From Candidatus Moraniibacteriota bacterium (lineage in GTDB: Bacteria; Patescibacteriota; Minisyncoccia; Moranbacterales; GCA-2747515): a stretch of DNA of 64,000 nt. A program made the translations under genes and the position numbers. Shown here piece by piece: positions 2,060 through 64,000 of this stretch (positions are counted from its first letter, which is position 1; each line of letters starts with the position of its first letter). Where the stretch lies: positions 81,535 through 145,534 of the forward strand of contig JALVQA010000006.1 in assembly GCA_027031495.1 (NCBI GenBank). Direction: 5' to 3'. The notes under the pieces were generated by a model that was not told the origin of the DNA, searched no databases, and saw only the letters and a list, made by a program, of their open reading frames with translations.

Positions 2060-2142
2060 ATTTTTTGATAAAAAACATCTGCGTTGTAGGTGTTTTTTAT
2101 GTGATGCATTTTTAGTATCTAATTTTTTGAATTTGTATTCTT

Positions 2143-2373
2143 ATGAGGATTATTGCCTCCGTCGTGACACGTGCACGTTCAGTGTCTGTAGAAAAAATGG
2201 CAGATGGTATGTATAAGGTGCGTGTGCGCGCCGTGCCGGAGAAGGGACGAGCGAATGATGCCGTCTGTGTGGCGCTTGCAGAATATTTTGGCATAACACC
2301 AAGCGCCGTACATATTGTTGCCGGTGCGACGACGCGCAAAAAAATGATTGATATTGATGGTATTGATGCATAA
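2143..2373 (+). CDS. YggU/DUF167 family small protein
   Basis: 76 aa; pattern VRVRAVPEKGRANDAVCVALAEYFGI..SAVHIVAG..R.K typical of UPF0235/YggU. Confidence 0.55.
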   Translation: MRIIASVVTRARSVSVEKMADGMYKVRVRAVPEKGRANDAVCVALAEYFGITPSAVHIVAGATTRKKMIDIDGIDA

Positions 2374-3886: not shown

Positions 3887-4731
3887 TATTCATTATTGGC
3901 GCAGCAGTGCTTTTATCTTTTGTTATCGCAATTGTTGCGATAGCTGCAGAACAGACACGACAGACGCGTGTTATCTTTCTCGATGTTGGGCAAGGTGATG
4001 CGATTCTCATTACACGTGGAACACAGCAGGTTTTAATTGACGGCGGTGCTGATCGTCGCGTGCTTCTTGAAAAACTTGGGCGCTATATGCCGTTTTGGGA
4101 CAGAACAGTTGATGTACTGATTGCAACACATCCAGATGCCGACCACATCGCTGCACAGGTTGGCGTATTTGATGCATACTATGTTGGTGCTGTTATCGCA
4201 ACCGATGCTTTTAAGAAATCACGTGTCGCTACGGCGTGGCACAGCGCGTTGGAGAAGAGTCGTGCACGTGTCATTATGGCGAACGAATCTGTTCGTATAC
4301 ATATGAAGAAAGATGACGAGAAGGCTGGTGTTATGCGTGTACTTTTTCCGCGTGTAGCGACAGATGTGCCGGCGATAAAAGATGTTAATGATACAAGTAT
4401 TGTAACGTTGCTAACAGTCGGTAAAACAACATTTCTTATGATGGGTGATCTATCACAAAAGCAAGAACGCAATATTAATCCAGGTCCGGTAAGTGTTCTA
4501 AAGGTTGGCCACCATGGCTCAAAGACATCAAGTAGTGAAGAGTTTATTGCGCGTGTGCATCCACATGATGCAATTGTTTCTGTCGGCGTGCACAATCGCT
4601 ACGGACATCCGGCGCAAGATGTTCTTGCACGCCTTAAAAAGTATGGCGCACATATCATACGCACAGATAAGCAAGGTGATATTGTTTATATGTGTTTTTT
4701 TGAAAAAAATGATGTGTGTGAGCGGTTATAA
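3844..4731 (+). CDS. Membrane-anchored metallo-beta-lactamase domain protein (ComEC C-terminal domain encoded as a separate ORF)
   Basis: N-terminal TM helix then VIFLDVGQGDAILI, HPDADHIAA, KVGHHGS, HNRYGHPAQDVLARL motifs of the ComEC MBL domain. Confidence 0.75.
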   Translation: MYTQREKEYMRKGIVFIIGAAVLLSFVIAIVAIAAEQTRQTRVIFLDVGQGDAILITRGTQQVLIDGGADRRVLLEKLGRYMPFWDRTVDVLIATHPDADHIAAQVGVFDAYYVGAVIATDAFKKSRVATAWHSALEKSRARVIMANESVRIHMKKDDEKAGVMRVLFPRVATDVPAIKDVNDTSIVTLLTVGKTTFLMMGDLSQKQERNINPGPVSVLKVGHHGSKTSSSEEFIARVHPHDAIVSVGVHNRYGHPAQDVLARLKKYGAHIIRTDKQGDIVYMCFFEKNDVCERL

Positions 4732-4750
4732 TTATTTTTAGAGAGTGCTC

Positions 4751-4782
4751 TTGACAACGTACAAAGTAGTGTTAGTATAAAT
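4751..4782 (+). promoter_or_regulatory. Sigma70-like promoter (rRNA P1): TTGACA 4751-4756, -10 TAGTAT/TATAAA ~4773-4781
   Basis: Consensus -35 with 16-19 nt spacer to AT-rich -10, ~500 nt upstream of 16S. Confidence 0.5.
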
Positions 4783-4828
4783 ATGGAGTTGACAGAGAAT
4801 GTTGTATTGGAATGAGTTTTTTAAGGGG

Positions 4829-4856
4829 TTGACAAGGAAAAAAACTTTGCTACAAT
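4829..4856 (+). promoter_or_regulatory. Sigma70-like promoter (rRNA P2): TTGACA 4829-4834, 16-nt spacer, TACAAT 4851-4856
   Basis: Near-consensus hexamers with ideal spacing upstream of 16S leader. Confidence 0.55.
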
Positions 4857-5274
4857 ACGTAGTGCAGTGTATAGATATGTCGATTGTTTGACGATCTATT
4901 CTGCTCTACAGAGGAAGGAGAATGAAATTACATTCTTGTACATCATGAGTTGTGATGTGTTGGGATGTGTTTTTATTCACTCTGTAAGAATAGGAACACA
5001 GTAGAACATTGACAATGTGATTACGTTTATTCAAGAAATGATAACCTTCTGAGGTTAGTCTTGAGACTAAGAGCGAGGACCTATTCTCTTGTTGCATTTT
5101 CTTTTGGAAAATGCGGTGTTCCCCTACATCTCTTTATCTGCATCAGATAGAGAATGTTGTTTCTTACCAAGCGATAGGAAACATCTTACAATAAGTGTAA
5201 GAAGGGATTCGCGTATCCGTAGGCATCTTTGTCTGTGTATTGTGGAAGCGAGCAATACACCGTGTACGGTCGCT

Positions 5275-6864
<1,590 letters not shown>

Positions 6865-7100: not shown

Positions 7101-8219
7101 GTGCGATATAGATATTGTGTTATTCAATATCAGATTAGCAATTATATTTTTATTAGAAATAATAAATCAAAAAGACCTATGAATACCGAAGAAAAACCTA
7201 CAAAAGATGAACGTGTAAAAAAGGTTATCACATTTGCTCTGGTCGTTGCAATTGGCGCTCTTGGTGTTTTGTATTATACGAAGAAACAAGATGTTAAAAA
7301 TCAAGTGGCGCAACAATCTAGTCAAGAACAAAGTGCGAGTGATGTAGATACCACCTTTATCCAATCTGTTGGCATTATTCAGAGCAAGTATCTGGATGAT
7401 GCTGATTTCCAGAAATACATTAATGATGAGATTAATGATCTCATTCACATTCAGCGAAAAGATATCATTGATGATGCTTTCAAGGTTGTTTTATACACGC
7501 AAAAAGCACTTAATGCGCTTGACAAGAGAGACAAGGATGCTGCGCAAAAAGAAATTGAAACAGCCCTCGGTAAGCTAGATGCTACGTTGGCGTTGGAGCC
7601 AAATGCCACACTTTTGCCTGTTGCAGTTAATGGTGAGGTGAACAATATTGTATCTTTTGATAAGGTGGCAGTAGAAGGTGTGAAGCAGAATGCACAGCAA
7701 GCATTGACACGTGGTGATGTACAACTTGCGCGAACACTTCTGGAAGGTCTTCAGAGTGATATTACGCTGGTAGTTGCCAACATTCCTCTCGCCGCACATG
7801 GTGTTGCGTTGCGTGATGCGCTGAGGGCGCTTGATGTTGATAATTATGATACAGCAAAAGCTGTACTCTATACGGCTATGACAACGCTTGTGGAGATACG
7901 TAAAGTAGTACCAATTCCACTTCTTAATGCTGAATTGCTGATCAAAAAGTCACAAGAAAAACTCAATGCAAAAGAAAAAGTGACGATTGTACATGGCATG
8001 CTTAGCGAAGCGAGAAAGCAAATTGAAATGGCACAAGTTCTTGGTTATGGCTTCTTGAACCAAAAGGAGTATGCTGATATCTACAAAGCTGTTGTCGCAC
8101 TTGAGAAGAAGATTGATGCGAAGGAAAGCACAGATGAGTCATACAAGGAACTCAAGGATGCTGTAAAGAGTTTGCGTGACAAAATCATGGCAAAGGATAG
8201 TGAAAAAAAGCAGAAATAG
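7101..8219 (+). CDS. Membrane-anchored coiled-coil protein with internal helical repeats (hypothetical; YfdX-like impression). Likely true start at MNTEEK 7179
   Basis: N-terminal TM VITFALVVAIGALGVLYY then long alpha-helical K/E/A-rich repeats; terminator immediately downstream. Confidence 0.5.
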   Translation: MRYRYCVIQYQISNYIFIRNNKSKRPMNTEEKPTKDERVKKVITFALVVAIGALGVLYYTKKQDVKNQVAQQSSQEQSASDVDTTFIQSVGIIQSKYLDDADFQKYINDEINDLIHIQRKDIIDDAFKVVLYTQKALNALDKRDKDAAQKEIETALGKLDATLALEPNATLLPVAVNGEVNNIVSFDKVAVEGVKQNAQQALTRGDVQLARTLLEGLQSDITLVVANIPLAAHGVALRDALRALDVDNYDTAKAVLYTAMTTLVEIRKVVPIPLLNAELLIKKSQEKLNAKEKVTIVHGMLSEARKQIEMAQVLGYGFLNQKEYADIYKAVVALEKKIDAKESTDESYKELKDAVKSLRDKIMAKDSEKKQK

Positions 8220-30361: not shown

Positions 30362-31267
30362 TTACGCAACATCAGTTGCGCGGTCGTAGGCCTTGTGGAC
30401 GTCGTCGTTCTGGATGTTGTAGTAGACCTGTGACGACGCCGGAGATGAGTGACCGAGGAGTTGCTGGAGATACGGCTGGTACATCTGCGCCGAGGCGAGG
30501 CGCTGGGCGAAGGCGTGACGCATAGAGTGTGGCGTCTTCCCTGTTATGCCAACGGCGCGACAGCGCGCTCGGAATATGCGCTCTACTTGCCGCGTTGTGA
30601 GGCGGCCGGTTCCGCGCAGTCCGACAAACAGCGCGCGCTCGCTCTTTTTGTGCAGTGTAGCGAGTATCGGCAACCAGCCGCGCAGAACACGCTCCGTTTC
30701 CGGCGTGAACGGAATGCTCCGGTATCCTGCTGCGTCGCGGCGTTTGCGTGTGATTGCCAGCACTTCCCTGCGGTCCAGGTCCACATCGCCTACATTGAGT
30801 GCGACAAGTTCAGAGACGCGCATACCGGTGTCGTACAGGAGCGTGAGGAGCGCCTCGTCACGAATGTCGGCAGTCGTCTCACGCGTGAATGTGCCACGCA
30901 GCAGTTGCCATTCATTGGTCGTCAGCGGCTTGTGGTGGCGTGCTCGGATGCGACCGCGAATTGGGATGGCATCGTGGCGCATCTTGAGTTGCAGTCCGTG
31001 ATGATCTGCCAGTACGCGCTCGCAGAACTTCCAGAGCTGTCGGAGAGCGATGAGGTGGAGATTGGCGGTTGTCTCTGACTTCCCCTCCCTGATGAGCTTC
31101 TGCGAGTACGGCAAGATGTGGTCCATCACGGTTACCTCCTCAATGGCAGTGTCACTCGCATAGCATGCGAATTGGCGGCAGATGTTTGTATAGATGGTCA
31201 GCGTGCGCTGGGTGTAGCGGTGAACACCCCACGCAAAGAATTGGTCTACTGCTTCGTGTATGGTCAT
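30362..31267 (-). CDS. int: Tyrosine recombinase/phage integrase (start moved to internal MTIHEAV; upstream hairpin overlaps the longer ORF)
   Basis: C-terminal catalytic motifs HSMRHAFAQRLA and LLGHSSPASSQVY (R..H..R..Y); N-terminal SAM-like core-binding domain. Confidence 0.9.
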   Translation of the reverse strand: MTIHEAVDQFFAWGVHRYTQRTLTIYTNICRQFACYASDTAIEEVTVMDHILPYSQKLIREGKSETTANLHLIALRQLWKFCERVLADHHGLQLKMRHDAIPIRGRIRARHHKPLTTNEWQLLRGTFTRETTADIRDEALLTLLYDTGMRVSELVALNVGDVDLDRREVLAITRKRRDAAGYRSIPFTPETERVLRGWLPILATLHKKSERALFVGLRGTGRLTTRQVERIFRARCRAVGITGKTPHSMRHAFAQRLASAQMYQPYLQQLLGHSSPASSQVYYNIQNDDVHKAYDRATDVA

Positions 31268-31298
31268 ACACGTAGTGTTATAGCGAATTATTGCACAT

Positions 31299-31329
31299 AA
31301 AAAAACCAACGGGGGTCTAGTCCCGTTGG
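31299..31329 (-). terminator. Intrinsic terminator (minus strand) CCAACGGG-loop-CCCGTTGG + T7 ending the phage minus-strand operon before int
   Basis: 8-bp stem followed on minus strand by TTTTTTT. Confidence 0.6.
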
Positions 31330-39076: not shown

Positions 39077-40831
39077 CTACCGCACACCGAGTGTCGCCAG
39101 CCGGTAGTCATCCGCCAGTGCCGTGCGCACGCGGTCAATGAGTGTCTCGTCCGTGAGTGTTGCACCGCGCAGATCTATGTTGACCGTCACGCCAGGCGCT
39201 GATTGCACAGCATCGCGTGGCTGCTCTATGCGCCCAGACTGCGTTGGCACGAACATCTCCGGACCATTCTCTCCCACCATATATGGCCGCCCGGCTGTTA
39301 CGGTACCACCGGTGGCACGGCGTGAGAAATTGAACTCCTTAATGTTTGGAAGTCCGGGAATACGGTTATACGAGCGAATTGCTTTATTTACAAGTCGTCC
39401 AATAATACCAAGTTTCCGACGAATCCAGTCCATAGCACCAGAGAATGCATTTTTTATTGCACTTCCCATTCTCTGAAATGCTCGGCTGATACTCCCAGCT
39501 ACTGCTGCACCAAAACGTTTAACCTTGTCCCAATTTTTGATGATAAGGTATGCTCCAGCGACAATTCCGGTGATGATTGCCCCACCAATAAGAAACGGTG
39601 CTGCTGCAGCAGCAACAGGAGCAAAAGCCGCCGCTACAGCAAGGAGTGACCGAACAAGCGTTCCGCTGAGAATGCTGGATATTTTTAGAAAGCCGCCTGT
39701 TAAACGTCCAACGTTGCCGATAATGCTAACAAATGATATAGCAGATGTTGCAACTTTCAGTGCCTCCCACGCTGCTACGGCATATAAAATCGCCTTCCCA
39801 TTATCCACAAGAAAAACAGTCAATTTTCCTATCGCAGGGAGCATCTTGTTGAATATGATATCGGCCGTAGATTTAAGTCTATTCAATATTCCACGCGGAC
39901 CACCAAGTTCATCAACGAGTTTCTTTGCGCCATCAATTGCTTTCTTCATCCACACAATCATCTCGTTAGCAATTTTTTCTTTGTTTGCACTCAACCAACC
40001 CATCATATCCTCTGCGGACTTTTTCAACATCGCAAAAATAGATCCCTCTCTTATGTCACCACGCTGATTAATTCCGACAATTTCTCGTGCAATATTCCCT
40101 ATATCATCGCGTAGATTTGACATAATTCCATTGAACGATTTACTCTGACGCTCCATTCCCTGAAAGAACAAACCTCCCTCACTCGTCATGCGGCGCAGTG
40201 CATCAGTGACATTATCGGATGTAACTTTGCCTGATGATATCATCTTTTCCAACTCTCCACGCGTGACTCCGAATATCTTTTGCAATTCGCCACCTAAATT
40301 GACACCTGCCTCAGTGAATTGAAGCAATTCTTGTCCCATCAACTTGCCCTTTGCCTGGACCTGCCCAAATGCAGTGATGAGTTGCGGTAATTTATCTGTG
40401 CCAACACCGGACGCAATATCACCCAACATCTTGAATGTTGGAATAATTTTTTCTGCTGAAATATTATACGCAAGTAATCTCTTTGAGCCTTCAACAACTT
40501 GCGGAAGGTCAAATGGTGTCTTTGATGCAAAGTCGGAAATACGCTTTAAAAGCGAACTTGCTTCATCTGCACTTCCAAGCATTGACTCAAAAGCGATGCG
40601 GTTCTGCTCAAATTGCGCAGCGCTACGTACAGCGAAAAAACCTGCAGTCGTCATACTTCCGGCAAGTCCAGCAAGAGCATACTTCGCAGCATTCGCAGCG
40701 CGACCAATAAGCCCAAGTTCCTTCTCAAAGCGACTTCCAAGTCGCCCTGCCGTCGCATTGAGCTTGTCTAATTCACGCATCGCATTGTTCCGCGCGTCTA
40801 TGACGATTTGTAGTTTTGCTGTCTTTTCCAT
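39077..40831 (-). CDS. Tail tape measure protein
   Basis: 584 aa, coiled-coil rich with G/A-rich hydrophobic segment AVAAAFAPVAAAAAPFLIGGAIITGIVAGAYLII; sits between chaperone-like gene and Dit. Confidence 0.8.
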   Translation of the reverse strand: MEKTAKLQIVIDARNNAMRELDKLNATAGRLGSRFEKELGLIGRAANAAKYALAGLAGSMTTAGFFAVRSAAQFEQNRIAFESMLGSADEASSLLKRISDFASKTPFDLPQVVEGSKRLLAYNISAEKIIPTFKMLGDIASGVGTDKLPQLITAFGQVQAKGKLMGQELLQFTEAGVNLGGELQKIFGVTRGELEKMISSGKVTSDNVTDALRRMTSEGGLFFQGMERQSKSFNGIMSNLRDDIGNIAREIVGINQRGDIREGSIFAMLKKSAEDMMGWLSANKEKIANEMIVWMKKAIDGAKKLVDELGGPRGILNRLKSTADIIFNKMLPAIGKLTVFLVDNGKAILYAVAAWEALKVATSAISFVSIIGNVGRLTGGFLKISSILSGTLVRSLLAVAAAFAPVAAAAAPFLIGGAIITGIVAGAYLIIKNWDKVKRFGAAVAGSISRAFQRMGSAIKNAFSGAMDWIRRKLGIIGRLVNKAIRSYNRIPGLPNIKEFNFSRRATGGTVTAGRPYMVGENGPEMFVPTQSGRIEQPRDAVQSAPGVTVNIDLRGATLTDETLIDRVRTALADDYRLATLGVR

Positions 40832-40997
40832 TTTTCCTCTTCTTCCTTTCTTACTTTCTCAACCTCCTCAATATACACTTCTGCAGTTGTTATAAATTCC
40901 CGCGGCGCAGTATCGTATTCCTGACTACTCCATCCCATCGCCTTACATATCAGCACCTTTCGGACAATAGGATCTGGTGATTCTACCCGACAACCTC

Positions 40998-41369
40998 TCA
41001 GGAGTCCTGAGAATTGTTGCCGGACTCGCCTTTTTTTTCGTGATCCTCAGAAATATCATCACTGCCTATACTATCAACGATGTCATAGATCTCCCGTGCC
41101 TGATTACTTGGCAGTGCGCCGATTCGATCTATGATATTTTCATTTGAATCGTCAAATGAAACAATGAGCATCTCTAGCGCTTTATTTTGCGCATCCTTCA
41201 CAACACTCGCAGAAAATGTAACCTCACGCTCCTGCGCACTCGTTAGCCGTACATTTTGCGCATCCAAGAAAATTCTTTCAAGAGCATCATTTTCCGCTCC
41301 TGTTATATATGTATAGATTTCAAGGGTTTTACCACTTGAAAGTTTCACCTTTTTTGTTGGTCGCTCCAT
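40998..41369 (-). CDS. Tail assembly chaperone-like small acidic protein (by position)
   Basis: 123 aa, acidic C-terminus, between major tail and TMP genes. Confidence 0.35.
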   Translation of the reverse strand: MERPTKKVKLSSGKTLEIYTYITGAENDALERIFLDAQNVRLTSAQEREVTFSASVVKDAQNKALEMLIVSFDDSNENIIDRIGALPSNQAREIYDIVDSIGSDDISEDHEKKGESGNNSQDS

Positions 41370-41520
41370 AGTTTTTTCTTACCTCCAATTAAAAAAGACC
41401 TCGCACGCGGAGGTCGTAACTTCCGCGCATGAGGTCCGTAGACGCTTGTCTTTGTCTCCAGTATACCACACTAATCAATTCTGTGCTATCCTGGAGTATA
41501 ATCACATAACTGGAGGTGAT

Positions 41521-42165
41521 ATGCATATTCATTGCCCGCACTGCGGTTTTGATGGCGAGATGCCACAGGATCGCACCAAAAAAGCAACGATTGCAACAGC
41601 TGTTGCAATTGCTAGTTTGATCGCGTTTTTTGCGATTATGCTAACAGATAACATATCGGAGCACTTTGCATTCTTTGCATCGCTCCCATTTGTTTTCGGA
41701 ATCGCTATCGGTATAGCGGCAAACCTGTCACATTGCCCAAAATGCGGACACAAAAATATTGTCACAGACAAAAACAAAGATGCTGCAACGAACTCCGAAA
41801 ATAGCAATAAAAAGATAAAAGACTTCAAAGAGCTGGAATGCCAACTTAACAAGGCAATAAGCGATGGTGACAACCATAAAATGGCAACAATTTACCATCG
41901 TATGGCGTGGGTGCTTGTTGATGAGGGGAGTGATGGCTCAGACTTTATGCGAGAGTCAAACCGTGCGCAACTGCGCCACATCGCAGAGTCTGGCGCAACA
42001 CGCGCTGATATTATTGCAACAGGATGCTGCGCGGCCTGTAAAGCAATTCATCATAAAACAGTTTCCATAAGAAAAGAAATTAAAGACCCGCAATTGCCGC
42101 AAAAAAACTGCACAAAGAAGTTGTGTATTTGTGACTATGCTGTAAACATTGACAGCGTGAAGTAA
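41521..42165 (+). CDS. Plus-strand accessory (moron) gene: membrane protein with two zinc-ribbon CxxC pairs flanking TM helices and a Cys-rich soluble C-terminal domain
   Basis: Own TATAAT (41492-41497) and SD GGAGGTGAT-ATG; CPHCG...TM...CPKCG; opposite strand to all phage genes; strong terminator downstream. Confidence 0.55.
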   Translation: MHIHCPHCGFDGEMPQDRTKKATIATAVAIASLIAFFAIMLTDNISEHFAFFASLPFVFGIAIGIAANLSHCPKCGHKNIVTDKNKDAATNSENSNKKIKDFKELECQLNKAISDGDNHKMATIYHRMAWVLVDEGSDGSDFMRESNRAQLRHIAESGATRADIIATGCCAACKAIHHKTVSIRKEIKDPQLPQKNCTKKLCICDYAVNIDSVK

Positions 42166-42170
42166 AATAG

Positions 42171-42242
42171 AAAAACACCGCCAGTGGCGCACAGGAGAGG
42201 AGGTGAGAAAAACTCCCATGCGCAGCAGGCGGTGTTTTTGTG
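42171..42242. terminator. Large bidirectional terminator hairpin (ACACCGCC...GGCGGTGT + T5) between moron and major tail gene
   Basis: 8-bp outer stem, inner pairing, A/T tracts both sides. Confidence 0.6.
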
Positions 42243-42247
42243 TTCGT

Positions 42248-43216
42248 CTAGTACGACGCCTTCTCGTTCGTGAGAATCGCCTTTGCAATCATCGCGTCGG
42301 AGAGTGAGTAGAACGCGCGGAACCGGATGGTCTGCAGGATGTCATCGCCAAGTCCACCGGACGGTGACCACTCATCAAACTGCACCTTCGGCAAGTCTAT
42401 CTGGATGGTCGGGTTGGAACTGTTGCCGATTGTGTCCGTGTGCGTCGCTTTGACACGCAGTGCTTTGCTGGTCCCACCTTCGTAGATCTGCTTCATCGTC
42501 GCGTCGTCAAAGTATGCCTCAATGTTTCCTTCCACGACAAAGTCACGGTTGCGAATATCGGACGGCTCGCTGTTGCCACAGACATAGCGCGGCTCTACAT
42601 TTTTATCAATGCTAATCTCAAACGAGCGAATCTCCATCGTCGTTGGCGATGAGTCAAGTCCTGCGAGAGTGCTTGCGTAGCTGAATGCCGCCATTTTTGA
42701 AAAAAAGCGTCGCTCGGATGAGTAGCTCACTGTGTCACTTGCCGCCGCACCTTTCTTGGCCAAGAACGACGCCGTAAACACCGCATCCTGTCCTGCCTCA
42801 CACGAGAGCTTCAGCGACTGCAGCATCCCAAGCGCATGCTTGAGCTGTTGCACATCGTTCTTGATGTTCAGCGTGAACGACGGGTGCGTGTTGTCGTTCT
42901 GCATCGTGAATGTGTGCTCATACACGGCCGTCTCACCACTCTTGGTAGTACTGGAAACGGACCCGAGTGCCGCCAGGAGCAAATACCCGATGGACTCGTC
43001 CATCACATTACCCTTGATCTCACCCTCAGCCCACTCCTTTGTCACCGTGCGGTCGGTCGCGTTCGCGATGACACCATAGCCCGCGTCGTCTGCCATCCCA
43101 TCCACCTTGTTGATGACGAATGGCGGCTCCGTGAGCGGAATCCACACAGCCGGTGCTACAGCCGTACCGCGCGCGCTCTCCTTCCCGATACCAAATGAAT
43201 ACTTTCTTCCTTGCAT
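42248..43216 (-). CDS. Major tail (tube) protein, by size and position
   Basis: 322 aa, downstream of head-tail joining genes, upstream of chaperone/TMP. Confidence 0.5.
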   Translation of the reverse strand: MQGRKYSFGIGKESARGTAVAPAVWIPLTEPPFVINKVDGMADDAGYGVIANATDRTVTKEWAEGEIKGNVMDESIGYLLLAALGSVSSTTKSGETAVYEHTFTMQNDNTHPSFTLNIKNDVQQLKHALGMLQSLKLSCEAGQDAVFTASFLAKKGAAASDTVSYSSERRFFSKMAAFSYASTLAGLDSSPTTMEIRSFEISIDKNVEPRYVCGNSEPSDIRNRDFVVEGNIEAYFDDATMKQIYEGGTSKALRVKATHTDTIGNSSNPTIQIDLPKVQFDEWSPSGGLGDDILQTIRFRAFYSLSDAMIAKAILTNEKASY

Positions 43217-47493: not shown

Positions 47494-49692
47494 TCACACC
47501 TCTATTTCCGGCGCAACACTGCACTGGCAGTTGACGCTCTCGTAGATTGGCAGCGACGGGTCGCTTGGGTACATCGCGTGATGTCCACCGATGGTGAACG
47601 GCTCGTCTATCCCGACGATCTGCCCGTCCGCCTCCGCGTGTGACGCGCGTGTGTTCCGGAACACGGCCGTCCAGATGCGATGTGTCGCGCCAAGCGCTTT
47701 CATCTCTTGCCAGCGTGCAAAGTTCTGCGCGCGTCCGACCTCTGTGCGCGCGATGCGCTCGCTGCGGTAGTCTCGCGCCTCGTCAAACACACGCGCAACG
47801 CGTGCCGACAACTCATCCACCGCATCACCCTCATCAATCCCCTCCTGCAGCGCGAGCGTCAGCTCGTCGCGCGTGTGGATGTTGATCTCATTCGCGAAGC
47901 GCGGCGGGTTCTCCTCCAGGAATTGTTTGGCGGCGTCGGTCCCGAGAATGTCCACCGCCTCCTGCCTGAGAAGCCCGGCAATCGCCACGACACCGTGCTC
48001 AAAGTCTATGCCGTACTGCTCGGAGAGAATTTTCGCCAACGCGTCATTGTCACCCATCACCTCCTCTACTACGGCCGGGATAGTGGTGTCCTTGTGCGCC
48101 TTCGCGCTAAACACCTGTGCGACCTTCTCTATCACAGCACTCTGCTGCTGCGAGAAGTACGCGCGCAGTGCATCGGTGAACTGCTCCTCGCGTTTGTCCA
48201 CCGTTGCGAGATATGCCTTGCGCTCCTTCACGAGCGCCTCCGGCAGTGTTGGTTCATCCTTCGCGCTCTTCGTTGTCAGTCGCACAACTTTCTTCTCCTC
48301 CTGCTTCTTGCGCAGACGGTTCAACGCCCGACGCGCCTTGACGCGCTGTACAACATCGTGCAGTGCTTTGCGTGAATTGTGCGATCGTGCCAATATCGCA
48401 GACTTGATGCGCAGTTGCTTGCGGCTCAACCCGTCAGCAAGTTGCAGCGCCTTCGGCTGCTCACCGTCACCGACCTGCGTACCCTGCGAACGCACATAGA
48501 GAACGTCACCGCCGTCCAGCGGTGGTAGACTGTACCGTGCACGCGCCTCGTTTATCGTGAGCCACACATTGACGCCGAAGCGCGTCTCATCCAGCACCGT
48601 CTTGCGATCCTCCGTAACAGGTGACTCATAGTCTAGCCACGCAGTATCGTCAATTTGCGGCACGAGGAAAGCGTTCAACTGCGAAACGATCAGGCGCAGC
48701 ATCGGGTCCACCGTGTATTTCGCGAGCGTCTCTTCTGCAACCTTCGCGTTCGCATAGGTCGTGTCTTTGGCAAAGAACCCTTCCGGCACACCGAGAATGC
48801 TCAGGATTGCCTGCTTGCTGTTCTTGCGCGTCTCCATATATCCGGCTTCACTTGGTGACTTGCGCCCGGTCTTTCCGATTTTGACGCCACCCTCAAGAAT
48901 CGCCACTTTTCCGGCATTCGTTGGGCCGCCATAGCGCTCCTCCCATGAGTCTCGCAGGCGCTTGTATACAGCGTCAGAAAGCTCGTGTTCCGTCTCCAAC
49001 ACAACATCCGGCTCGCCGTGACGCTCCATGTAGTACTTGTTCCATATCGCGGCAGCAGCGTCCACATCCACTTCTAACGCGCTTGCGGAAAGCGAACTGT
49101 AACCGCGAATCACATCTCGCGGGTCCGGGTCGCGGATGTATACCACATCCTCCGTACTGAACCGCTCCACCTTCCCACCGGCGCGGAACTCATAGTGCGA
49201 CACGGTGCCGTCCGGCTTCTGCTTGATGCTCAACAGGTCCGGGCGCATTGGAAAGAGTCCGACAATGCGGCGACCTTTGCGAATCTTAAAAAGCGGCGCG
49301 GCGCCAAAAAGCTTCAGATATGTAACGACGAGCCCCAACATCTGCACCTTGTCCATAATCGGGTTCGGGCGCTCCAGCAGTGCGATGATTGCGTGGTCCT
49401 CCACGCGCTCCGGCGCGTCGCCTTTGAGCACATAGACATCCAGTGGTGTCGCTGACACGCGGTTAGCGATAATCTTAATGGCAAAATATACCCACCCGGC
49501 GAATGCGTTCAGCGGATCTGTTTCCGCGCTTTTTCGGCGCATAAAATATGAGCCGGTCACCGATGAGAGGAACGGGATGCCGCCGCCATATCCGATAAAT
49601 TTCAGTAGCGCGCCACGCAAGAGAGATTTGATTTTCATAGTTTCGTGATAAATACAAAAAGAGCCCTGCGCGTCCCGACATGTCAGGACCAA
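47494..49692 (-). CDS. Portal protein fused to Mu F-like/SPP1 gp7-like minor head protein domain
   Basis: 732 aa; portal-like N-terminal two thirds; C-terminal ARTEVGRAQNFARWQEM...NCQCSV characteristic of MuF-like head morphogenesis domain. Confidence 0.75.
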   Translation of the reverse strand: MVLTCRDAQGSFCIYHETMKIKSLLRGALLKFIGYGGGIPFLSSVTGSYFMRRKSAETDPLNAFAGWVYFAIKIIANRVSATPLDVYVLKGDAPERVEDHAIIALLERPNPIMDKVQMLGLVVTYLKLFGAAPLFKIRKGRRIVGLFPMRPDLLSIKQKPDGTVSHYEFRAGGKVERFSTEDVVYIRDPDPRDVIRGYSSLSASALEVDVDAAAAIWNKYYMERHGEPDVVLETEHELSDAVYKRLRDSWEERYGGPTNAGKVAILEGGVKIGKTGRKSPSEAGYMETRKNSKQAILSILGVPEGFFAKDTTYANAKVAEETLAKYTVDPMLRLIVSQLNAFLVPQIDDTAWLDYESPVTEDRKTVLDETRFGVNVWLTINEARARYSLPPLDGGDVLYVRSQGTQVGDGEQPKALQLADGLSRKQLRIKSAILARSHNSRKALHDVVQRVKARRALNRLRKKQEEKKVVRLTTKSAKDEPTLPEALVKERKAYLATVDKREEQFTDALRAYFSQQQSAVIEKVAQVFSAKAHKDTTIPAVVEEVMGDNDALAKILSEQYGIDFEHGVVAIAGLLRQEAVDILGTDAAKQFLEENPPRFANEINIHTRDELTLALQEGIDEGDAVDELSARVARVFDEARDYRSERIARTEVGRAQNFARWQEMKALGATHRIWTAVFRNTRASHAEADGQIVGIDEPFTIGGHHAMYPSDPSLPIYESVNCQCSVAPEIEV

Positions 49693-57575: not shown

Positions 57576-58176
57576 GTTTCTACTCCTCTCTTTTAAAGGA
57601 TGTTTCTAAAACATAAAAATATGATACAAAAGCGAAAGGGGGTGAGTTTCTACTCCTCTCTTTTAAAGGATGTTTCTAAAACCGCACCGTGACGAAGTCA
57701 CGGAGTGCGCTCTCCGTTTCTACTCCTCTCTTTTAAAGGATGTTTCTAAAACTCAAACTCCGCAACGCGCTCATCGTGTGTGTCTTGTTTCTACTCCTCT
57801 CTTTTAAAGGATGTTTCTAAAACCTGACGCCTCCACCTATGACGCGCGCGCGCTCGGTTTCTACTCCTCTCTTTTAAAGGATGTTTCTAAAACAAACGGA
57901 CGAAAAATACGGAAATTTCTCATAATGTTTCTACTCCTCTCTTTTAAAGGATGTTTCTAAAACATGCGGTTCGTGAAGGACTACTACACGAATTCTGGTT
58001 TCTACTCCTCTCTTTTAAAGGATGTTTCTAAAACTTTTTGTGCGAGGTATGAAGTTACACATGTACTAGTTTCTACTCCTCTCTTTTAAAGGATGTTTCT
58101 AAAACAGGTGTTACGTAAGCAGTTGCGCCGAGAAATTGAGTTTCTACTCCTCTCTTTTAAAGGATGTTTCTAAAAC
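57576..58176 (-). CRISPR. CRISPR array, 9 identical 37-nt repeats GTTTCTACTCCTCTCTTTTAAAGGATGTTTCTAAAAC (plus strand), 8 spacers of 33-35 nt. Inferred to be transcribed on the minus strand from the cas2-proximal side
   Basis: Repeats at 57576, 57646, 57716, 57787, 57857, 57927, 57998, 58069, 58140; 5-nt partial repeat GTTTC at 57571-57575 at the prophage-proximal (trailer) end. Confidence 0.95.
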
Positions 58177-58511: not shown

Positions 58512-58829
58512 CTAAAAAATCGCAATATGCGGTTCATCATAAACGCGTGACGTTGTTCCGTAGCGGCGGATACGCTTCTCAATTGATTGTGGAATCGGAA
58601 TAATGATCAATGCTTCGTCTTTTTTGTTTTTTACGAGAAATTTACTGTGCTGCAGACGTGCCATAAATTCACGTTTCCGTGCCGGTGTGAGAAAAAATTC
58701 AAAAATTGAATATTGTGTACGCACACCGAATTCTTCAAGGATTTTAACAAGACGTCGTCGCCGACGATCATCTGACACATCAAAAGCAACAAAAAATCTT
58801 TCTCTTTGCGCACTCATACGCGCTTCCAT
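58512..58829 (-). CDS. cas2: Cas2
   Basis: 105 aa; ERFFVAFDVSDDRRRRRLVKILEEFGVRTQYSIFEF Cas2 N-terminal pattern. Confidence 0.85.
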   Translation of the reverse strand: MEARMSAQRERFFVAFDVSDDRRRRRLVKILEEFGVRTQYSIFEFFLTPARKREFMARLQHSKFLVKNKKDEALIIIPIPQSIEKRIRRYGTTSRVYDEPHIAIF

Positions 58830-59812
58830 TCAAATGGCTTAAAGGTATCGCGATCACCAATGAGAATCTGTGCAAGTTGACGCACATCACGCTCCATGAG
58901 CGCTACAAGTGTGCGGTTTTCCGCAAAGTGATCGTAGCGAATAAACCGTGACCACTTTGGAAAAAACGTTCCGTATCCGTGTCGTGAGAGCGAAACGACA
59001 CCACCATCATCTGTTGTAAAATCTTTCTGTGTAAATTCTCTACGATTGACGCTACGCAACACAAAATATTCAATTGGTCCACGATAAATTTCCAAGAAGT
59101 CACTTGCAAGCGCGGCATGGCCGTATTTTTGATCATGGAGAAAGCCAACATATGGATCAAGACCAACGATCATAATATGTGTAACGAGTTCCGCGTGAGC
59201 AAGTGTATAGCAAAAACTTAAAAGCGCATTTAACGGATCGGTTGCCGGATGCTTTATGCGTCCGGGAAATACAAAGTCCGCATTATTTTTAACAAGTGAC
59301 GCATCTCGCCATATGCGAAAGTACTGACGTGCTGCAGTACCTTCCATGCCACGTATAGTATCAAGTGATAAATTTTGAGATACATTATCCGGCAATGTAT
59401 TAAGACGTTGCGTTGCACGCATCTTTTTTAATACACGATTTTGATTGATAATCTTACCACGCACAAATGTATATGCCATTTCTCGCCGCTTTTCTTTGTC
59501 ATCGTGCCACTTAAATTGCGCATGACGCAGAAAAACATTTTTTGTGTAATCATAGAGCACGGAAGCGACAAAACGGCCTTTACCATCTATAAAGTGAATT
59601 GGCACGTGATTTGTACGTGCCAATGATAACACTTTATTTGTGAGTGTTACATCACCGAAAATTACAATATCGCGCGTTGAAAGCGCTGGAAATTTTTCAC
59701 GTATATCACCAGCTTTTGTGCGAATGGCAAAATTTTGTCCACTTACACTGAGTGTGTCATCAAAACGTGCGCGATAATAGACCGTTGATTTCCCTTCCGT
59801 CAATAACGTCAT
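58814..59812 (-). CDS. cas1: Cas1
   Basis: NALLSFCYTLAHAEL and GLDPYVGFLHD hallmark Cas1 motifs; 332 aa. Confidence 0.9.
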   Translation of the reverse strand: MTLLTEGKSTVYYRARFDDTLSVSGQNFAIRTKAGDIREKFPALSTRDIVIFGDVTLTNKVLSLARTNHVPIHFIDGKGRFVASVLYDYTKNVFLRHAQFKWHDDKEKRREMAYTFVRGKIINQNRVLKKMRATQRLNTLPDNVSQNLSLDTIRGMEGTAARQYFRIWRDASLVKNNADFVFPGRIKHPATDPLNALLSFCYTLAHAELVTHIMIVGLDPYVGFLHDQKYGHAALASDFLEIYRGPIEYFVLRSVNRREFTQKDFTTDDGGVVSLSRHGYGTFFPKWSRFIRYDHFAENRTLVALMERDVRQLAQILIGDRDTFKPFEWKRV

Positions 59813-59856
59813 AATATTATCACCTATGAATCAAGACGTTATATTATACAATAAAA

Positions 59857-60453
59857 CTATAAATAACACAAGTCACGGAAACAACATCCGTCACATCTTG
59901 CATCACGGTGTTGCGGAAAATCATGTGGGTCAAGCAAGTCTTTTTGTAAACGTTTGTAGACAGCATCAGCAAGTACTATTGCTTCTTTTTGCTCATCATC
60001 GCCAAGCGTGTATCGCTTTCGCTGGCGATCGCCGGTAAAGAAAATTTCACCATACGTAAGATGTGATGATGAAAACATTTCACGCAGACACAGTGCTTGC
60101 AGGGCGAGCTGTTGGCGATGTGCAGGATTTGTACGCTTTTTACCACGCTTAAATTCAACCGGCACAATTACATTGTGCGGATAGAATTCTACAACATCCA
60201 CTACACCACTGATACCGTACTGTCGCGAGTAAATACGCAATGATGATTGTACGCGTAGAGCATTGCGATGACGTGTATATGGTTTATCCACCACGCGATG
60301 CGCCGCACGACCATCTTGGATATATGTATTTTCATCTCGCACACGTGGTGCGTCCGTCAGGAGATAGTAGGTGCTGCGCGGGCAATATGCATACTCAGCA
60401 ATGAACGATAGCGGAATAAGTGGTCGGTCAGTCTGTGGTGCTTTCTGTGACAT
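59857..60453 (-). CDS. cas4: Cas4 (RecB-like nuclease with Fe-S Cys cluster)
   Basis: N-terminal YAYCPRSTYY and C-terminal CDGCCFRDLC; overlaps effector stop by 26 nt. Confidence 0.85.
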   Translation of the reverse strand: MSQKAPQTDRPLIPLSFIAEYAYCPRSTYYLLTDAPRVRDENTYIQDGRAAHRVVDKPYTRHRNALRVQSSLRIYSRQYGISGVVDVVEFYPHNVIVPVEFKRGKKRTNPAHRQQLALQALCLREMFSSSHLTYGEIFFTGDRQRKRYTLGDDEQKEAIVLADAVYKRLQKDLLDPHDFPQHRDARCDGCCFRDLCYL

Positions 60454-63400
60454 GGCGTTTGGCGAACTGTGGTGATTTCAGCATAAAGAGTTTTAGTGTG
60501 GAGAGAATGCCCTTTTCCGTACATGCGACAAGCTCTTCCTCTGTTGCAACTAACTTGAAGTAGTACTTTAGTGCGATGTTTTGTGCAGCTTGTTCGTCGG
60601 CATCGCATGATGCGCCACAGTACTGACAGTGAAATTGCGCTTTTTGTCCACGACCATAATTCTCTTCATTTTCTGTACGCTGTGCCAAATGAATTGCTGC
60701 GAGAATCTCACGAAGTGTATATGTGTCATCACTAAGATTGCAACGTACATGCGCGTCAGTACCATCACTAAATGTTAGATGTAGTGCGTTGTTAGTAACT
60801 ATGATTGACTGATTGTTGTTATTCTCTCTAAAATATCGCTCAACTTCATATGTTGTACAGTATCCACAAGCACGACAGGTTTGCGAGGTTTTTGCCGCAC
60901 CGATGACAGCGCCAATCTGTGCATACTTTACACCCCAGATATGTGCGCGCACCGCAGCATCTGCTTCATTACTCGTACCACTGATAATATCTGCTGTTTT
61001 GAGTGTCTTGTAGAGTTTCGCAATCCGCTGTCCCCCACTCTCAAAGCCGTCCACAGAGTCTTCGTAAATCGGAATCGCATTGTACTTCAGTGCCAACGCG
61101 TGGATTTGATTGCGCACCGTACCGGCGGCCAGTTCGCGGATTTTTGCCAGGTGCGTTGTCGGGCGTGTGAAGAGTCCGGCGCTCTGCGTGTCGCGCCATG
61201 ATGCCGCTTCTGCGCGCATCTGTTCCAAATACGGCACTTCTATGAAACTGCTTTCCACAAACTGTTCTGTGCGCGGATCAAAGACGGCGTAGCCAAAGCC
61301 ATATTCGCCAAGGTCGATGCCCAGGAGCATTTGCTCGCGGCGATACTGTTTTTGATTTTTTCCATCGGCGTTGCGGAGGCAGATATTCGCACCTTCCAGA
61401 CACCGCGTCTCCTCCACAACTTCTCCATGGCGGTCACCATCACCTTTGGCGATGGAAAACGGCAGTGCCCAGTAGAGTGTTTGTTTACCGGGAATGATTT
61501 GCACAGCGCCATCTGTATCACGATGAACGTTTTGAACTTGTTCGTAGATGATTGATCCGCCCTGGATGCTCTCTACCAGTTGCTCCGTGCGATCACCCCA
61601 CAAAAAGCGCTCCAAGAATTGCTTTTGCACGCGGGAGGTTTCCAGTGGGAGGCGGTAGTAGTAATATCCGCCAATCGTCCCGTTAACAGATGCACGCGAA
61701 ACATGTTTTGGCTTAAAAACAGATTTCTTTTGTGATTTTTCAAAGAAAAGTCCGCTATTTACCTGTGACAATCCTTCTATCGGTAGTTTTGTACACAGAA
61801 TCATTGCCCAGCGATGTGGCAATTCACCCAATACACGCGTTAATGCGCGTGCATCGCTTGCTGATGTGGTCTTCAGTCTTTGCCAAATGTGCGTTGCGAT
61901 TTCTTGCGGCTCGCTTGTCGTGTCAATATCCTGTGTGCGCAAGATATTTTGCGCTTCCGTGGAGAGTTGTTTTTGTTGTGCAAAACGCTTCTTGAGGCGC
62001 TTTTGCGCACGCCGGTAGCGCCGGCGTTGCGGTGCAGTCATTTGCCGCAAATCATCATCAGATTTTTCTGTGAAAGACATTTCGCCCCATGACAATGGAA
62101 TGTACTCAAGAATACTTTGCTCACCGTTTGTAACTTGCAAAACGACACGGTCAATATAGGATGTGCGTGACAATAGCGAGAGTTTTCCGCGGATTTCAGT
62201 GCCGATTGCAGCGGCGACAAATCGTTGGAAGTGTGTGCGCGGCATATCATCACTACGCACTGTACCATTTTGCGGATTACTGTACAGCAAATTTGCAAGT
62301 TTTCGTTCACGCAATATACGCCACTGTGGCCGCTCGGATGGTAGATGAATATTTTTTGGCAACCAACGCAACTGCAATCCCCAATATATTTTCAGTAATT
62401 CCCCACCATCAATATTGATTGGTTTTTGTGGTTGGTTGAGATAAAAGAGATCTTTGATTATTCGCTTATCTGTGAGTTGATTTAGTTTAAATGTCACACC
62501 AAAATCATGTAAAAACGTTTTTGGGTCGTATAAAAGATTTTCGCGCAGTGGCATCGGCGTATAGTGAAAGCGATGGTATGGTGTCACAAGAAAACGCAAA
62601 AAACGGCGATCTTTGGTGTGCCACCACTTCTTGAGATCATCACTCTTTTCGTGATTATTTATGGCGTCCCAATCAATATATCGCTCCAAAAATGCCCATA
62701 CCGGTGCGCCGTCACGCATACGCAGAGCGAGATCCTTCAATCGTTCCAGTGTTTTGAGTGCGTGGGCACGACCGTTTTTGCGATATTCTTGACCAAACCA
62801 TTCAGTGCGCAAATGCTCACGATCTTCATTGGATAGTAAGTTACGTTGATGTGCTGTAGTAATGAGATCTTGGCCGGCAAGAACAAGGTCTACTAATTCC
62901 TCTGCCGCATTCTCAATTATTTTTGCCGGATCACGTTGTGCCTGTTTGATAAACCGTGGGTAGCGCTCCAGCGCGCTTGGAATCATGGCTTTCTTCCAAA
63001 ATCCGATAATGTTTTGGTCGGTGTCGCGTGTTGATTCTTTTGCCTCACTTTTTTTCTTTTTCCGATCAACTATTGCATCAAACACATCACCAAAAAGTTC
63101 TTTCTCATCCGTATTGTTATGTATGGGAACACCTTCATTGTTCCACTTTGCTAAAAACTCGCGAAATTCCTGCAACACGTCAGTATAGTCGTCCAAAAGT
63201 TTGCCAAGATTTTTGCTTCGTTTTTGCAACGCTTCAGCAAGACGTGGTTGTAACTCGCGTAATAATTCAAAGTTCATTACTTGTTCTTGCGGAAATAGTC
63301 TTCTGTACGCCGTTTTAGCAATTGTATCAAAGATTGCGCGATGCGTCCTGGCGTTTTTCCGGGTATCACCTTCAGTATTCTCCACAAGATGTGCTTCGTA

Positions 63401-64000
63401 ATCATTGAGGCGGTTTTCAAAGTTGGACAACCATGACTGCAATCGTCCGCCAACAAGTGTACGGTAATCTGCCCAATTTATACGAAGAAATTCCACATCC
63501 TTTGCAACAGGAATTTTAGTAGCATACTCATGAACACGTTCGGCTAAACGTCTCAAATAGTGTGGATTCTGCGCGAAAAATGCCGGGTTTCCACGCGCTA
63601 TAAGAGATGTCGCATCTTCTACCGATGCGCGAAAAGTTTCTAGTGCATCACCCCAAAGATTGCTTAGTGCATTTTGATTATCTGCAACGCCAGCAAGACT
63701 TTGAATTGTTCGCATGCCGCTCGTTTGGTGCATTGCCGGCAACAGATGTTCAAAATAAGCAGTGTAGATATCAATTGGCTGTACGCATCGCGTGGATAAA
63801 AGCTCTTCACTCATTGGGAGAATAATGAACGTGTTTTTATCTTGTTTGACAGCAATGGGATTTGTTATACCGAATATTTTTTGCAACCCCTCGCCATCAA
63901 CAACATTGTGTTTGCGGGCATATGCAACAAATGCATCATTGATCTGTTTGATTATCGGATAGTCTCCTATATTATCTTTCGTAACTCTGTCCTCTGTAAA
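60428..64000 (-). CDS. cas12: Large Cas12-family (type V) effector, N-terminus beyond window (>1190 aa); RuvC-I GIDLGEYGFGYAVFD, RuvC-II IPIYEDSVDGFESG, zinc finger CRACGYC...CQYCGASC, RuvC-III DADEQAAQNIALK
   Basis: Split RuvC in C-terminal third with Zn ribbon between RuvC-II and III (TnpB/Cas12 architecture), no HNH; frame continues open from TTG at 63886 to window end. Confidence 0.8.
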   Translation of the reverse strand, partial: FTEDRVTKDNIGDYPIIKQINDAFVAYARKHNVVDGEGLQKIFGITNPIAVKQDKNTFIILPMSEELLSTRCVQPIDIYTAYFEHLLPAMHQTSGMRTIQSLAGVADNQNALSNLWGDALETFRASVEDATSLIARGNPAFFAQNPHYLRRLAERVHEYATKIPVAKDVEFLRINWADYRTLVGGRLQSWLSNFENRLNDYEAHLVENTEGDTRKNARTHRAIFDTIAKTAYRRLFPQEQVMNFELLRELQPRLAEALQKRSKNLGKLLDDYTDVLQEFREFLAKWNNEGVPIHNNTDEKELFGDVFDAIVDRKKKKSEAKESTRDTDQNIIGFWKKAMIPSALERYPRFIKQAQRDPAKIIENAAEELVDLVLAGQDLITTAHQRNLLSNEDREHLRTEWFGQEYRKNGRAHALKTLERLKDLALRMRDGAPVWAFLERYIDWDAINNHEKSDDLKKWWHTKDRRFLRFLVTPYHRFHYTPMPLRENLLYDPKTFLHDFGVTFKLNQLTDKRIIKDLFYLNQPQKPINIDGGELLKIYWGLQLRWLPKNIHLPSERPQWRILRERKLANLLYSNPQNGTVRSDDMPRTHFQRFVAAAIGTEIRGKLSLLSRTSYIDRVVLQVTNGEQSILEYIPLSWGEMSFTEKSDDDLRQMTAPQRRRYRRAQKRLKKRFAQQKQLSTEAQNILRTQDIDTTSEPQEIATHIWQRLKTTSASDARALTRVLGELPHRWAMILCTKLPIEGLSQVNSGLFFEKSQKKSVFKPKHVSRASVNGTIGGYYYYRLPLETSRVQKQFLERFLWGDRTEQLVESIQGGSIIYEQVQNVHRDTDGAVQIIPGKQTLYWALPFSIAKGDGDRHGEVVEETRCLEGANICLRNADGKNQKQYRREQMLLGIDLGEYGFGYAVFDPRTEQFVESSFIEVPYLEQMRAEAASWRDTQSAGLFTRPTTHLAKIRELAAGTVRNQIHALALKYNAIPIYEDSVDGFESGGQRIAKLYKTLKTADIISGTSNEADAAVRAHIWGVKYAQIGAVIGAAKTSQTCRACGYCTTYEVERYFRENNNNQSIIVTNNALHLTFSDGTDAHVRCNLSDDTYTLREILAAIHLAQRTENEENYGRGQKAQFHCQYCGASCDADEQAAQNIALKYYFKLVATEEELVACTEKGILSTLKLFMLKSPQFAKRHVTESTTD

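Follow-up and report, generated by a model that had tools for sequence, protein, structure and literature searches.

A backward-oriented gene in the tail operon of a Moraniibacteriota prophage, a candidate moron joining a predicted membrane hairpin to a remotely MuF-like domain

The first gene to be named a moron, gene 15 of HK97, lies in the tail operon beside the chaperone gene, and its product, gp15, is described as a small protein of the inner membrane, expressed by the prophage, that prevents genome injection and whose specificity maps to the phage tail (exclusion work of Cumby et al. 2012, as summarised in PMC3594210). Here we analyze a gene with a similar setting in a 64,000-nt stretch of DNA (the window, by which we mean this whole stretch) from Candidatus Moraniibacteriota, a lineage of the Candidate Phyla Radiation (CPR)/Patescibacteria. 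The window contains a siphovirus-type prophage of ∼27 kb that spans ∼30.3-57.3 kb and is encoded on the minus strand; one plus-strand gene, which an earlier note on this DNA had interpreted as a moron, interrupts its tail module. We hold with middling confidence that this gene is a self-contained moron, inserted in reverse orientation at the junction of the tail tube and tail-chaperone-like genes, expressed in the lysogen and acting in phage exclusion. The interpretation of the earlier note is supported by the absence of the gene from this junction in ∼31 relatives, by a Shine-Dalgarno (SD) sequence and a terminator of its own, by its orientation against the late operon, and by the lysogeny and accessory contexts in which its homologues are found.

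By analogy, HK97 gene 15 is the closest precedent. In both cases, an extra gene in the tail operon of a temperate siphovirus stands beside the chaperone gene and encodes a membrane protein, and the predicted helices of the protein studied here give it the trait of gp15/YebO-type proteins, namely that of a membrane protein encoded by a tail-operon moron. The two genes differ in that HK97 gene 15 is located between the chaperone and tape measure genes, whereas the present gene is located between the tube and chaperone genes on the opposite strand. Also, the present protein carries a ∼110-aa zinc domain, predicted to be cytoplasmic, which gp15 lacks. Finally, gp15 belongs to the YebO family, whereas no homology to gp15 or YebO was found for the present protein, whose Pfam scan returned weak zinc-ribbon and membrane matches only.

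Three other known systems resemble parts of the protein or of its distribution. The LITAF domain (PF10601) is a membrane-inserted split zinc ribbon, and the N-terminal module of our protein similarly places two CxxC knuckles around a hydrophobic, membrane-embedded segment, a likeness that we regard as an architectural analogy. A LITAF-like identity of this module was considered and rejected: one homologue (P0046) gave a match short of the Pfam threshold, with E = 0.027, and neither our protein nor four other homologues gave any. The length of the hydrophobic stretch in our protein, described below, is a further difference. Exclusion genes of the Sie/Ltp type (Sie2009, Ltp of TP-J34) are classically found in the lysogeny modules of Gram-positive temperate phages, and two relatives of our gene (P0026 and P0015) likewise lie in a repressor-integrase region. 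Ltp is an extracellular lipoprotein, whereas the domain of our protein is predicted to be cytoplasmic and shows no sequence similarity to any modelled family. The third system is MuF/SPP1 gp7 (PF04233), with which the C-terminal half of the C-terminal domain (C-domain) shares the order helix - G - beta strand - CxxC - G(K) - ... - P(P) - ... - CxC. Unlike MuF proteins, ours is predicted to be membrane-anchored (its relatives being fused to a zinc ribbon), and its gene is not adjacent to the portal gene and runs against the late operon.

The tube-chaperone junction and the signals of the inserted gene

In the window, an insert of 878 nt separates the tube and chaperone genes. To place this arrangement among related tail modules, the tube protein was used as a single query and gave no match in genome contigs or metagenome contigs. 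The sole related contig found in IMG/VR, a public viral-contig collection (L002, tube 37% identical), has 10 nt between the tube stop and the chaperone start, and a scan of metagenome contigs with a two-sequence tube alignment yielded 32 further relatives with 27-39% identity. Among relatives with readable downstream DNA, L002 and ∼30 of these 32 carry a chaperone-like gene (90-130 aa) on the same strand, ∼10-150 nt after the tube gene, and no homologue of either module of our protein was present in those ∼31 related tail modules. The single exception is L082, where an 867-nt insert at the same junction (1443-2308) holds an unrelated gene on the same strand, encoding a 138-aa protein with a signal peptide (MKTAFALVLVLAFPLSAFA...). 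The junction is normally closed and occasionally hosts foreign genes; our gene therefore falls under the operational definition of a moron (PMC3594210), being an extra gene between genes that are adjacent in related phages and bringing its own terminator (42171-42242).

The plus-strand open reading frame (ORF) runs from 41446 to 42165, and ATG 41521 was taken as the true start because homologues begin at the same MH(I/V)xCPxC. As the earlier note had stated, this is the only convincing plus-strand gene in the prophage: it is the single plus-strand call among the 29 genes called on the public contig (sequencing run SRR13622960; 31.5-52.2 kb of the window), and all other plus-strand ORFs of at least 90 aa in 30.3-57.3 kb overlap longer minus-strand ORFs, for most but not all of which family matches were recorded. 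Minus-strand ORFs of 114 and 110 aa that overlap the gene were considered as real genes and rejected, the plus frame being the one that bears conserved family signatures. The reported position of our gene between a tail-chaperone-like gene and the major tail gene was likewise confirmed, the neighbours being the tail tube gene and a gene for a 123-aa chaperone-like protein that has no family match.

Expression signals were then examined on both sides of the gene. The strong SD that had been reported was found as GGAGGTGAT, which abuts the ATG and can pair with the 3′ end of the 16S rRNA encoded in the window itself (...GGATCACCTCCTTTCT). The claimed TATAAT is also present, but at 41497-41502 rather than at 41492-41497, and the promoter that it was taken to mark is weakly supported. 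By reading the sequence, no acceptable -35 hexamer and no TG extension were found with it; a consensus promoter scan called no site, and a perfect TATAAT is expected ∼30 times by chance in the window. For these reasons, a promoter of the gene's own is plausible, not established. Among the plus-strand TATAATs of the prophage, this is the only one that sits in an intergenic gap ahead of a plus-strand ORF. To our knowledge, the promoter rules of CPR bacteria are poorly known.

Downstream of the gene, the large bidirectional terminator that had been proposed folds stably on both strands, with an A-run before it and a T-run after it. Its folding energy is -39 kcal/mol on the plus strand and -38 kcal/mol on the minus strand (z = -5.7 and -7.7, respectively), and 0 of 200 shuffled sequences folded as well. 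Upstream, just ahead of the SD and start of the chaperone gene, we detected a second hairpin that is absent from the earlier note. This structure (stem 41397-41437, -28.8 kcal/mol, z = -3.2) consists of GACCTCCGCGTGCGAGGTC followed by TTTTTT and is terminator-like on the minus strand only. The cassette therefore reads, in order, minus-strand terminator, -10 hexamer, SD, coding sequence and bidirectional terminator.

Late transcription of the minus strand, on its way from the tube gene to the chaperone, tape measure and distal tail genes, also meets the two terminator-like hairpins. RNA polymerase of the late operon would have to read through both of them to reach these genes, and their presence in this path implies antitermination or strong attenuation of the downstream tail genes. 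Read-through of both terminators would fit antiterminated late transcription, as in lambdoid phages.

With respect to composition, the G+C content at third codon positions (GC3) is 0.43 in our gene, 0.37 in the chaperone gene and 0.42 in the tape measure gene, compared with 0.69-0.70 in the tube and capsid genes. Because its GC3 is shared with theirs, our gene seems to have come with, or to have long resided beside, the chaperone/tape measure block and does not look like a lone recent insert. The break between low and high GC3 falls at the bidirectional terminator. Taken as a whole, a low-GC3 block (39077-42165, 0.37-0.43) lies within a prophage of otherwise high GC3 (0.68-0.70 in the tube, capsid and integrase genes), and the breaks at the bidirectional terminator and at the tape measure/Dit junction suggest module exchange. 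From the composition shared with the tape measure/chaperone block, there is a hint of joint inheritance of the gene with the tail type that it would recognise.

Two protein families in one chain and their relatives

Scans of the protein against Pfam, PHROGs, PADLOC and NCBIfam returned weak zinc-knuckle matches only. A word-indexed protein search found the protein alone (a singleton at 90% identity), and the same type of search with a 50-sequence profile found 3 proteins; in GenBank phages, there was no match for the region by blastn, nor for our protein or for protein P0011 by tblastn. In contrast to these searches, an exhaustive HMMER search of 1.84 billion representative proteins yielded 178 at E ≤ 1e-3, counted as representative clusters at 50% identity, and revealed two modules in our protein, which joins two unmodelled families in a new fusion.

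The N-terminal module (residues 1-84) agrees with the earlier description of two zinc-ribbon CxxC pairs flanking transmembrane (TM) helices: CPHC occupies residues 5-8 and CPKC residues 72-75, with two hydrophobic helices between them. Its layout is CPHC, ∼13 residues, a helix, a short acidic loop, a second helix and H-CPKC, and the hydrophobic stretch of ∼46 residues, which includes a polar turn, is long enough for two full TM helices. As read from the sequence, Lys and Arg lie at the outer ends of the helices and the loop contains only acidic residues, Asp and Glu. On the basis of the positive-inside rule and of the many Cys ligands, we predict a cytoplasmic location for both termini, for the reconstituted zinc ribbon and for the C-domain; zinc binding is, like the topology, a prediction from sequence. 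The module also exists on its own, in six homologues of 84-98 aa that share this layout and in which neither CPxC knuckle varies. This N-terminal split-zinc-ribbon hairpin is an unmodelled small-protein family of prophages.

The Cys-rich C-terminal part, which had been described as a soluble domain, is real and belongs to a family with no model in Pfam, NCBIfam, PHROGs or PADLOC. Across 50 aligned full-length sequences, C170, P193 and C197 do not vary, and at least 90% of the members have C173, C202 and C204; our protein has all of them. When the single full-length sequence was modelled with AlphaFold2 (AF2), the result was poor, with a predicted local distance difference test score (pLDDT) of 59 that dropped to 43 at residues 81-90. 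With a 40-sequence alignment, the C-domain was modelled at pLDDT 96 and a predicted TM-score (pTM) of 0.88, as a three-helix bundle followed by a Cys-rich alpha/beta subdomain. No chain in the Protein Data Bank (PDB) matches the C-domain by sequence profile or by fold. Members of the family are usually built from a contiguous zinc ribbon (CxxC-13-CxxC) at the N terminus, followed by a helical linker and the C-domain, so that most members bear a soluble zinc ribbon where our protein has the hairpin.

Several weak signals connect the C-domain to MuF. A Foldseek search against predicted viral structures (BFVD) returned as top matches nearly all minor capsid, head morphogenesis domain, MuF-like or GpF-like proteins, the best with E = 1.3e-3, probability 1.0 and TM-score 0.50. 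Phage_Mu_F was the best Pfam match of the family consensus, spanning CxxC...P...CxC with E = 1.1e-3 and 20.1 bits, which is under the 29.6 cut-off. Individually, 3 of the 50 members matched Phage_Mu_F (E < 0.01) and 6 of the 50 matched PHROG minor head or head morphogenesis families, while our protein itself gave no match to Phage_Mu_F at E ≤ 10. A tblastn search of GenBank phages with the family consensus found a 'head morphogenesis protein' with E = 0.01 and a 'minor head protein' with E = 0.2. When the family was aligned by hhalign with three bona fide MuF domains, the result was insignificant (E = 0.062), as it was with the window's own portal-MuF protein alone (probability 3%); the register found with the MuF domain of the latter was the same. 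One metagenomic protein of 435 aa, P0054, combines a near-threshold Phage_Mu_F region (residues 131-202, 25.9 bits), a zinc ribbon (∼247-267) and a C-domain (305-435) and is, as a single chain, a natural link between MuF and the C-domain family. Addition of a region of P0054 brought the hhalign result to E = 7.8e-6; this value is transitive and not independent support because that region had itself been recruited by the query.

The earlier note had named clear homology to a structural or assembly protein as the observation that would speak against a moron. The MuF likeness comes near to this, but it stays below threshold and the gene context is different. While 85-87% of muf genes adjoin the portal gene (PMC5576092), the distance from our gene, placed in the tail module, to the portal gene exceeds 5 kb, the two genes are on different strands, and none of the relatives examined adjoins a portal gene. 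The C-domain is thus probably a remote relative of MuF, and its family probably derives from MuF, yet it is not a member of the MuF family, since it scores below the Pfam gathering cut-off and is encoded away from the portal gene. In the prophage, a bona fide MuF domain is already present as a fusion with the portal protein. That domain was seen to lack the usual CxxC, with TRASHAEADG in its place, and to keep only the terminal CxC.

We next compared the genomic contexts of relatives. P0007, which consists of a zinc ribbon and a C-domain (35% identical over the domain), occupies the same slot in another phage: its gene runs opposite to the Phage_tube_2 tube gene and the chaperone-like gene that flank it. 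The tube of this phage shares only 26% identity with that of the window, and the chaperone 31%. The 40-nt gap ahead of the P0007 gene contains, by eye, a -35/-10-like pair. In the same phage (contig L055), a second opposite-strand gene (1269-1898, +) lies between the chaperone and tape measure genes, which is the position of gp15 in HK97, and its 209-aa product has an N-terminal hydrophobic segment and a Pro/Thr-rich linker. P0026 is found in a 56.5-kb viral genome (also in IMG/VR), beside a serine recombinase/integrase, as the last gene of a co-directional run that is opened upstream by a cI-type HTH_3 repressor. P0015 is encoded in a (pro)phage, with the tail end on one side, the integrase on the other and a winged-helix regulator next to it, and P0157 occupies the cargo end of an integrative element with integrase, HTH_17, AAA_25 and primase-like genes. 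A further homologue is encoded on the opposite strand of a viral IMG/VR contig (L067), between tail genes and a gene (1513-5364, -) whose 1283-aa product reads from its translation, with no family scan, as DNA methylase/restriction-like. Among proteins that consist of the N-terminal module only, P0046 is encoded on the opposite strand next to a prophage integrase, and P0082 on the opposite strand next to the tape measure gene of a prophage remnant. The two modules occurred as neighbouring separate genes in 0 of the fetched loci, that is, there was no Rosetta-stone adjacency.

The prophage and its surroundings

The serine hydroxymethyltransferase encoded in the window shares 90% identity with that of a Candidatus Moraniibacteriota metagenome-assembled genome (MAG), and the matches ranking next come from other MAGs of the Parcubacteria group. 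Besides an integrase gene, the prophage carries genes for tail tip proteins, Dit, tape measure, tail tube, head-tail connectors, capsid protein, protease, a portal-MuF fusion and terminase, and early genes for Erf, a replication initiator, an exonuclease and a resolvase. The G+C content is ∼55% in the prophage and ∼43% in the host, an unusually large gap for an integrated element. Comparison of the prophage flanks for att sites gave no direct repeats of 12 nt or more.

The right end of the prophage adjoins a CRISPR array followed by cas2-cas1-cas4 and a gene for a 1152-aa Cas12-like protein, whose sole match is a weak one to Cas12f-like TNB; the region resembles a type V locus. With up to 6 mismatches allowed, the 8 spacers had no match elsewhere in the window, so that no self-targeting spacer was found. 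Elsewhere in the window, a complete 16S rRNA gene is present at 5276-6863 and a 23S rRNA gene is absent throughout, which indicates that the rRNA genes are unlinked; the gene downstream of the 16S gene (7101..8219) encodes a YfdX-domain protein. Coordinates of the features are collected in the table.

Table. Features of the inserted gene, the surrounding prophage and its flank, in window coordinates
Feature	Position	Strand	Remarks
Integrase gene	30362..31309	-	
Tape measure gene	39077..40831	-	Comes after the chaperone-like gene
Tail-assembly-chaperone-like gene, 123 aa	40998..41369	-	Homologous to the gene right after the tube in relatives; context, outside the insert
Terminator-like hairpin	41391..41437	-	Stem 41397-41437; U-run 41391-41396
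Perfect -10 hexamer TATAAT	41497..41502	+	18 nt before the start codon; candidate promoter only
Shine-Dalgarno sequence GGAGGTGAT, 9 nt	41512..41520	+	Pairs with the 16S 3′ end ATCACCTCC, ~6853-6861
Candidate moron coding sequence	41521..42165	+	214 aa + stop; public protein P0001
N-terminal module, residues 1-84	41521..41772	+	Predicted split zinc ribbon with membrane hairpin
Zinc knuckle CPHC	41533-41544	+	
TM helix 1	~41584-41652	+	Predicted
TM helix 2	~41671-41730	+	Predicted
Zinc knuckle CPKC	41734-41745	+	
Lys/Asn-rich linker, ~residues 85-104	41773..41832	+	
C-terminal domain, ~residues 105-212	41833..42156	+	Three helices + small Cys-rich alpha/beta subdomain (model)
C170	42028-42030	+	Family-invariant
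P193	42097-42099	+	Family-invariant
C197	42109-42111	+	Family-invariant
G+C-rich bidirectional intrinsic terminator hairpin	42171..42242	both	Between the convergent candidate moron and tube genes
Tail tube gene	42248..43216	-	Pfam Phage_tube_2, 1.3e-24; context, outside the insert
Portal-MuF fusion gene	47494-49692	-	732-aa protein; MuF domain by Pfam, 2.6e-13
CRISPR array	57576-58176		9 copies of the 37-nt repeat GTTTCTACTCCTCTCTTTTAAAGGATGTTTCTAAAAC; spacers 33-34 nt
cas region	58512-63886	-	105-aa cas2-like ORF (by position, no family scan), Cas1, Cas4, 1152-aa protein

A possible mode of action and its alternatives

If the gene is a moron acting in exclusion, its product could work as follows. 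The two-helix hairpin would serve as an anchor in the cytoplasmic membrane, the CPxC knuckles on either side of it would join as one zinc ribbon at the cytoplasmic face, and the flexible Lys/Asn linker would hold the ∼110-aa zinc-binding MuF-like domain just under the membrane. Made in the lysogen, the protein would be placed where incoming phage DNA and its escort proteins enter the cell, and the MuF-like domain might there engage a phage component, be it the portal/MuF-type DNA-end complex, the tape measure protein, another co-injected protein of the incoming phage or the DNA itself. As a result, a superinfecting phage would be blocked at genome entry or at later head assembly; alternatively, the MuF-like domain may titrate the portal protein during assembly. 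Of the MuF proteins, SPP1 gp7 is the best studied; it binds strongly to the portal and aids the start of infection (PMC6316719; PMC5576092), and a membrane-held MuF-like domain could for this reason plausibly engage the portal/DNA-end complex. Expression from the prophage, the exclusion function and the target of the protein are what we infer from the locus and the predicted protein.

Several observations weigh against this interpretation. The evidence for a promoter is a lone -10 hexamer, and the low GC3 of the gene is common to the chaperone and tape measure genes and differs only from that of the tube side. Among the relatives, P0022 and its actinobacterial kin seem to be encoded on chromosomes, no mobile element being visible in the vicinity, and the context of P0010, near a Zeta toxin, is ambiguous. 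In PADLOC-DB v2, our protein had no match, and 50 relatives gave scattered single matches with E ≥ 8e-4, none of them consistent. The presence of a homologue in the same slot of a very distant phage could reflect a conserved role in the phage cycle. Finally, the large domain is predicted to be cytoplasmic, unlike Ltp and Cor, which are injection blockers that act outside the membrane.

A role in the phage cycle is the alternative suggested by this same-slot homologue in a phage with only 26% tube identity. The protein would then be a membrane-tethered MuF-like factor that aids the phage's own infection or assembly, for instance in portal/procapsid docking or DNA entry, and the gene would stay in the tail module by working with the tape measure/chaperone block, whose GC3 it shares; the remote MuF-like fold and sequence point in the same direction. 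We nevertheless consider such a role improbable, given that the gene is oriented against the late operon with terminators on both sides, is missing from ∼31 relatives with the same tail module, and has relatives in lysogeny modules, an integrative element and plain chromosomal DNA, and that the portal protein already carries a bona fide MuF domain. A further alternative is an abortive-infection sensor-effector, for which the accessory contexts of the relatives speak in the same manner. Here, the MuF-like domain would sense a head or portal component and the hairpin would oligomerise and depolarise the membrane, so that the infected cell dies. The combination of a membrane hairpin with a cytoplasmic protein-binding domain, and the existence of the N-terminal module alone as a tiny prophage membrane protein, are consistent with such a device. 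However, most family members have a soluble zinc ribbon and no hairpin, and membrane damage can therefore not be the general output of the family; moreover, there was no defence-model match and no toxin-like domain in our protein. We regard abortive infection, too, as improbable.

Even less probable, in our judgement, is that the gene serves lysogenic conversion, regulation or anti-defence, either as a membrane-held zinc-ribbon regulator or as a factor against the adjacent type V CRISPR-Cas system. Zinc ribbons often bind nucleic acids, and a CRISPR array with cas genes does abut the prophage; but no spacer of the visible array matches the window, a membrane tether speaks against a DNA-bound regulator, and no anti-CRISPR-associated helix-turn-helix (HTH) gene lies beside our gene. 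That the gene is a decaying, non-functional leftover of module exchange would agree with its being a singleton at 90% identity and with its position at a mosaic boundary. Such an origin is very hard to reconcile with an intact frame of 214 codons that keeps all the invariant residues of both modules, with a strong SD and a terminator, and with a confident AF2 model, and we consider it highly improbable.

Returning to the moron reading, a bolder version of it concerns the whole C-domain family. We think it conceivable, though doubtful, that this is an undescribed family of MuF mimics, portal-binding decoys derived from a minor head protein and fused, in this case, to a membrane hairpin. Prophages, integrative elements and some chromosomes would deploy such decoys to bind the portal/DNA-end complex of an invading or replicating phage, and fusion to the hairpin would put the capture at the point of DNA entry.

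Tail-operon morons are a known way in which prophages pay their host, and few of their products have a known mechanism. The gene described here belongs to a sizeable family (178 clusters) that has no family model or solved structure and yet folds confidently, and the C-domain family recurs in lysogen-type slots of phages and integrative elements. Its likeness to MuF gives a concrete, testable idea of the binding partner. The host is an uncultured CPR bacterium, a group in which the biology of phage-host and phage-phage interactions is almost unexplored. If true, the decoy version would represent a principle of defence in which a virion protein is turned into bait, and it would be among the first mechanistic handles on phage-phage conflict in Patescibacteria.

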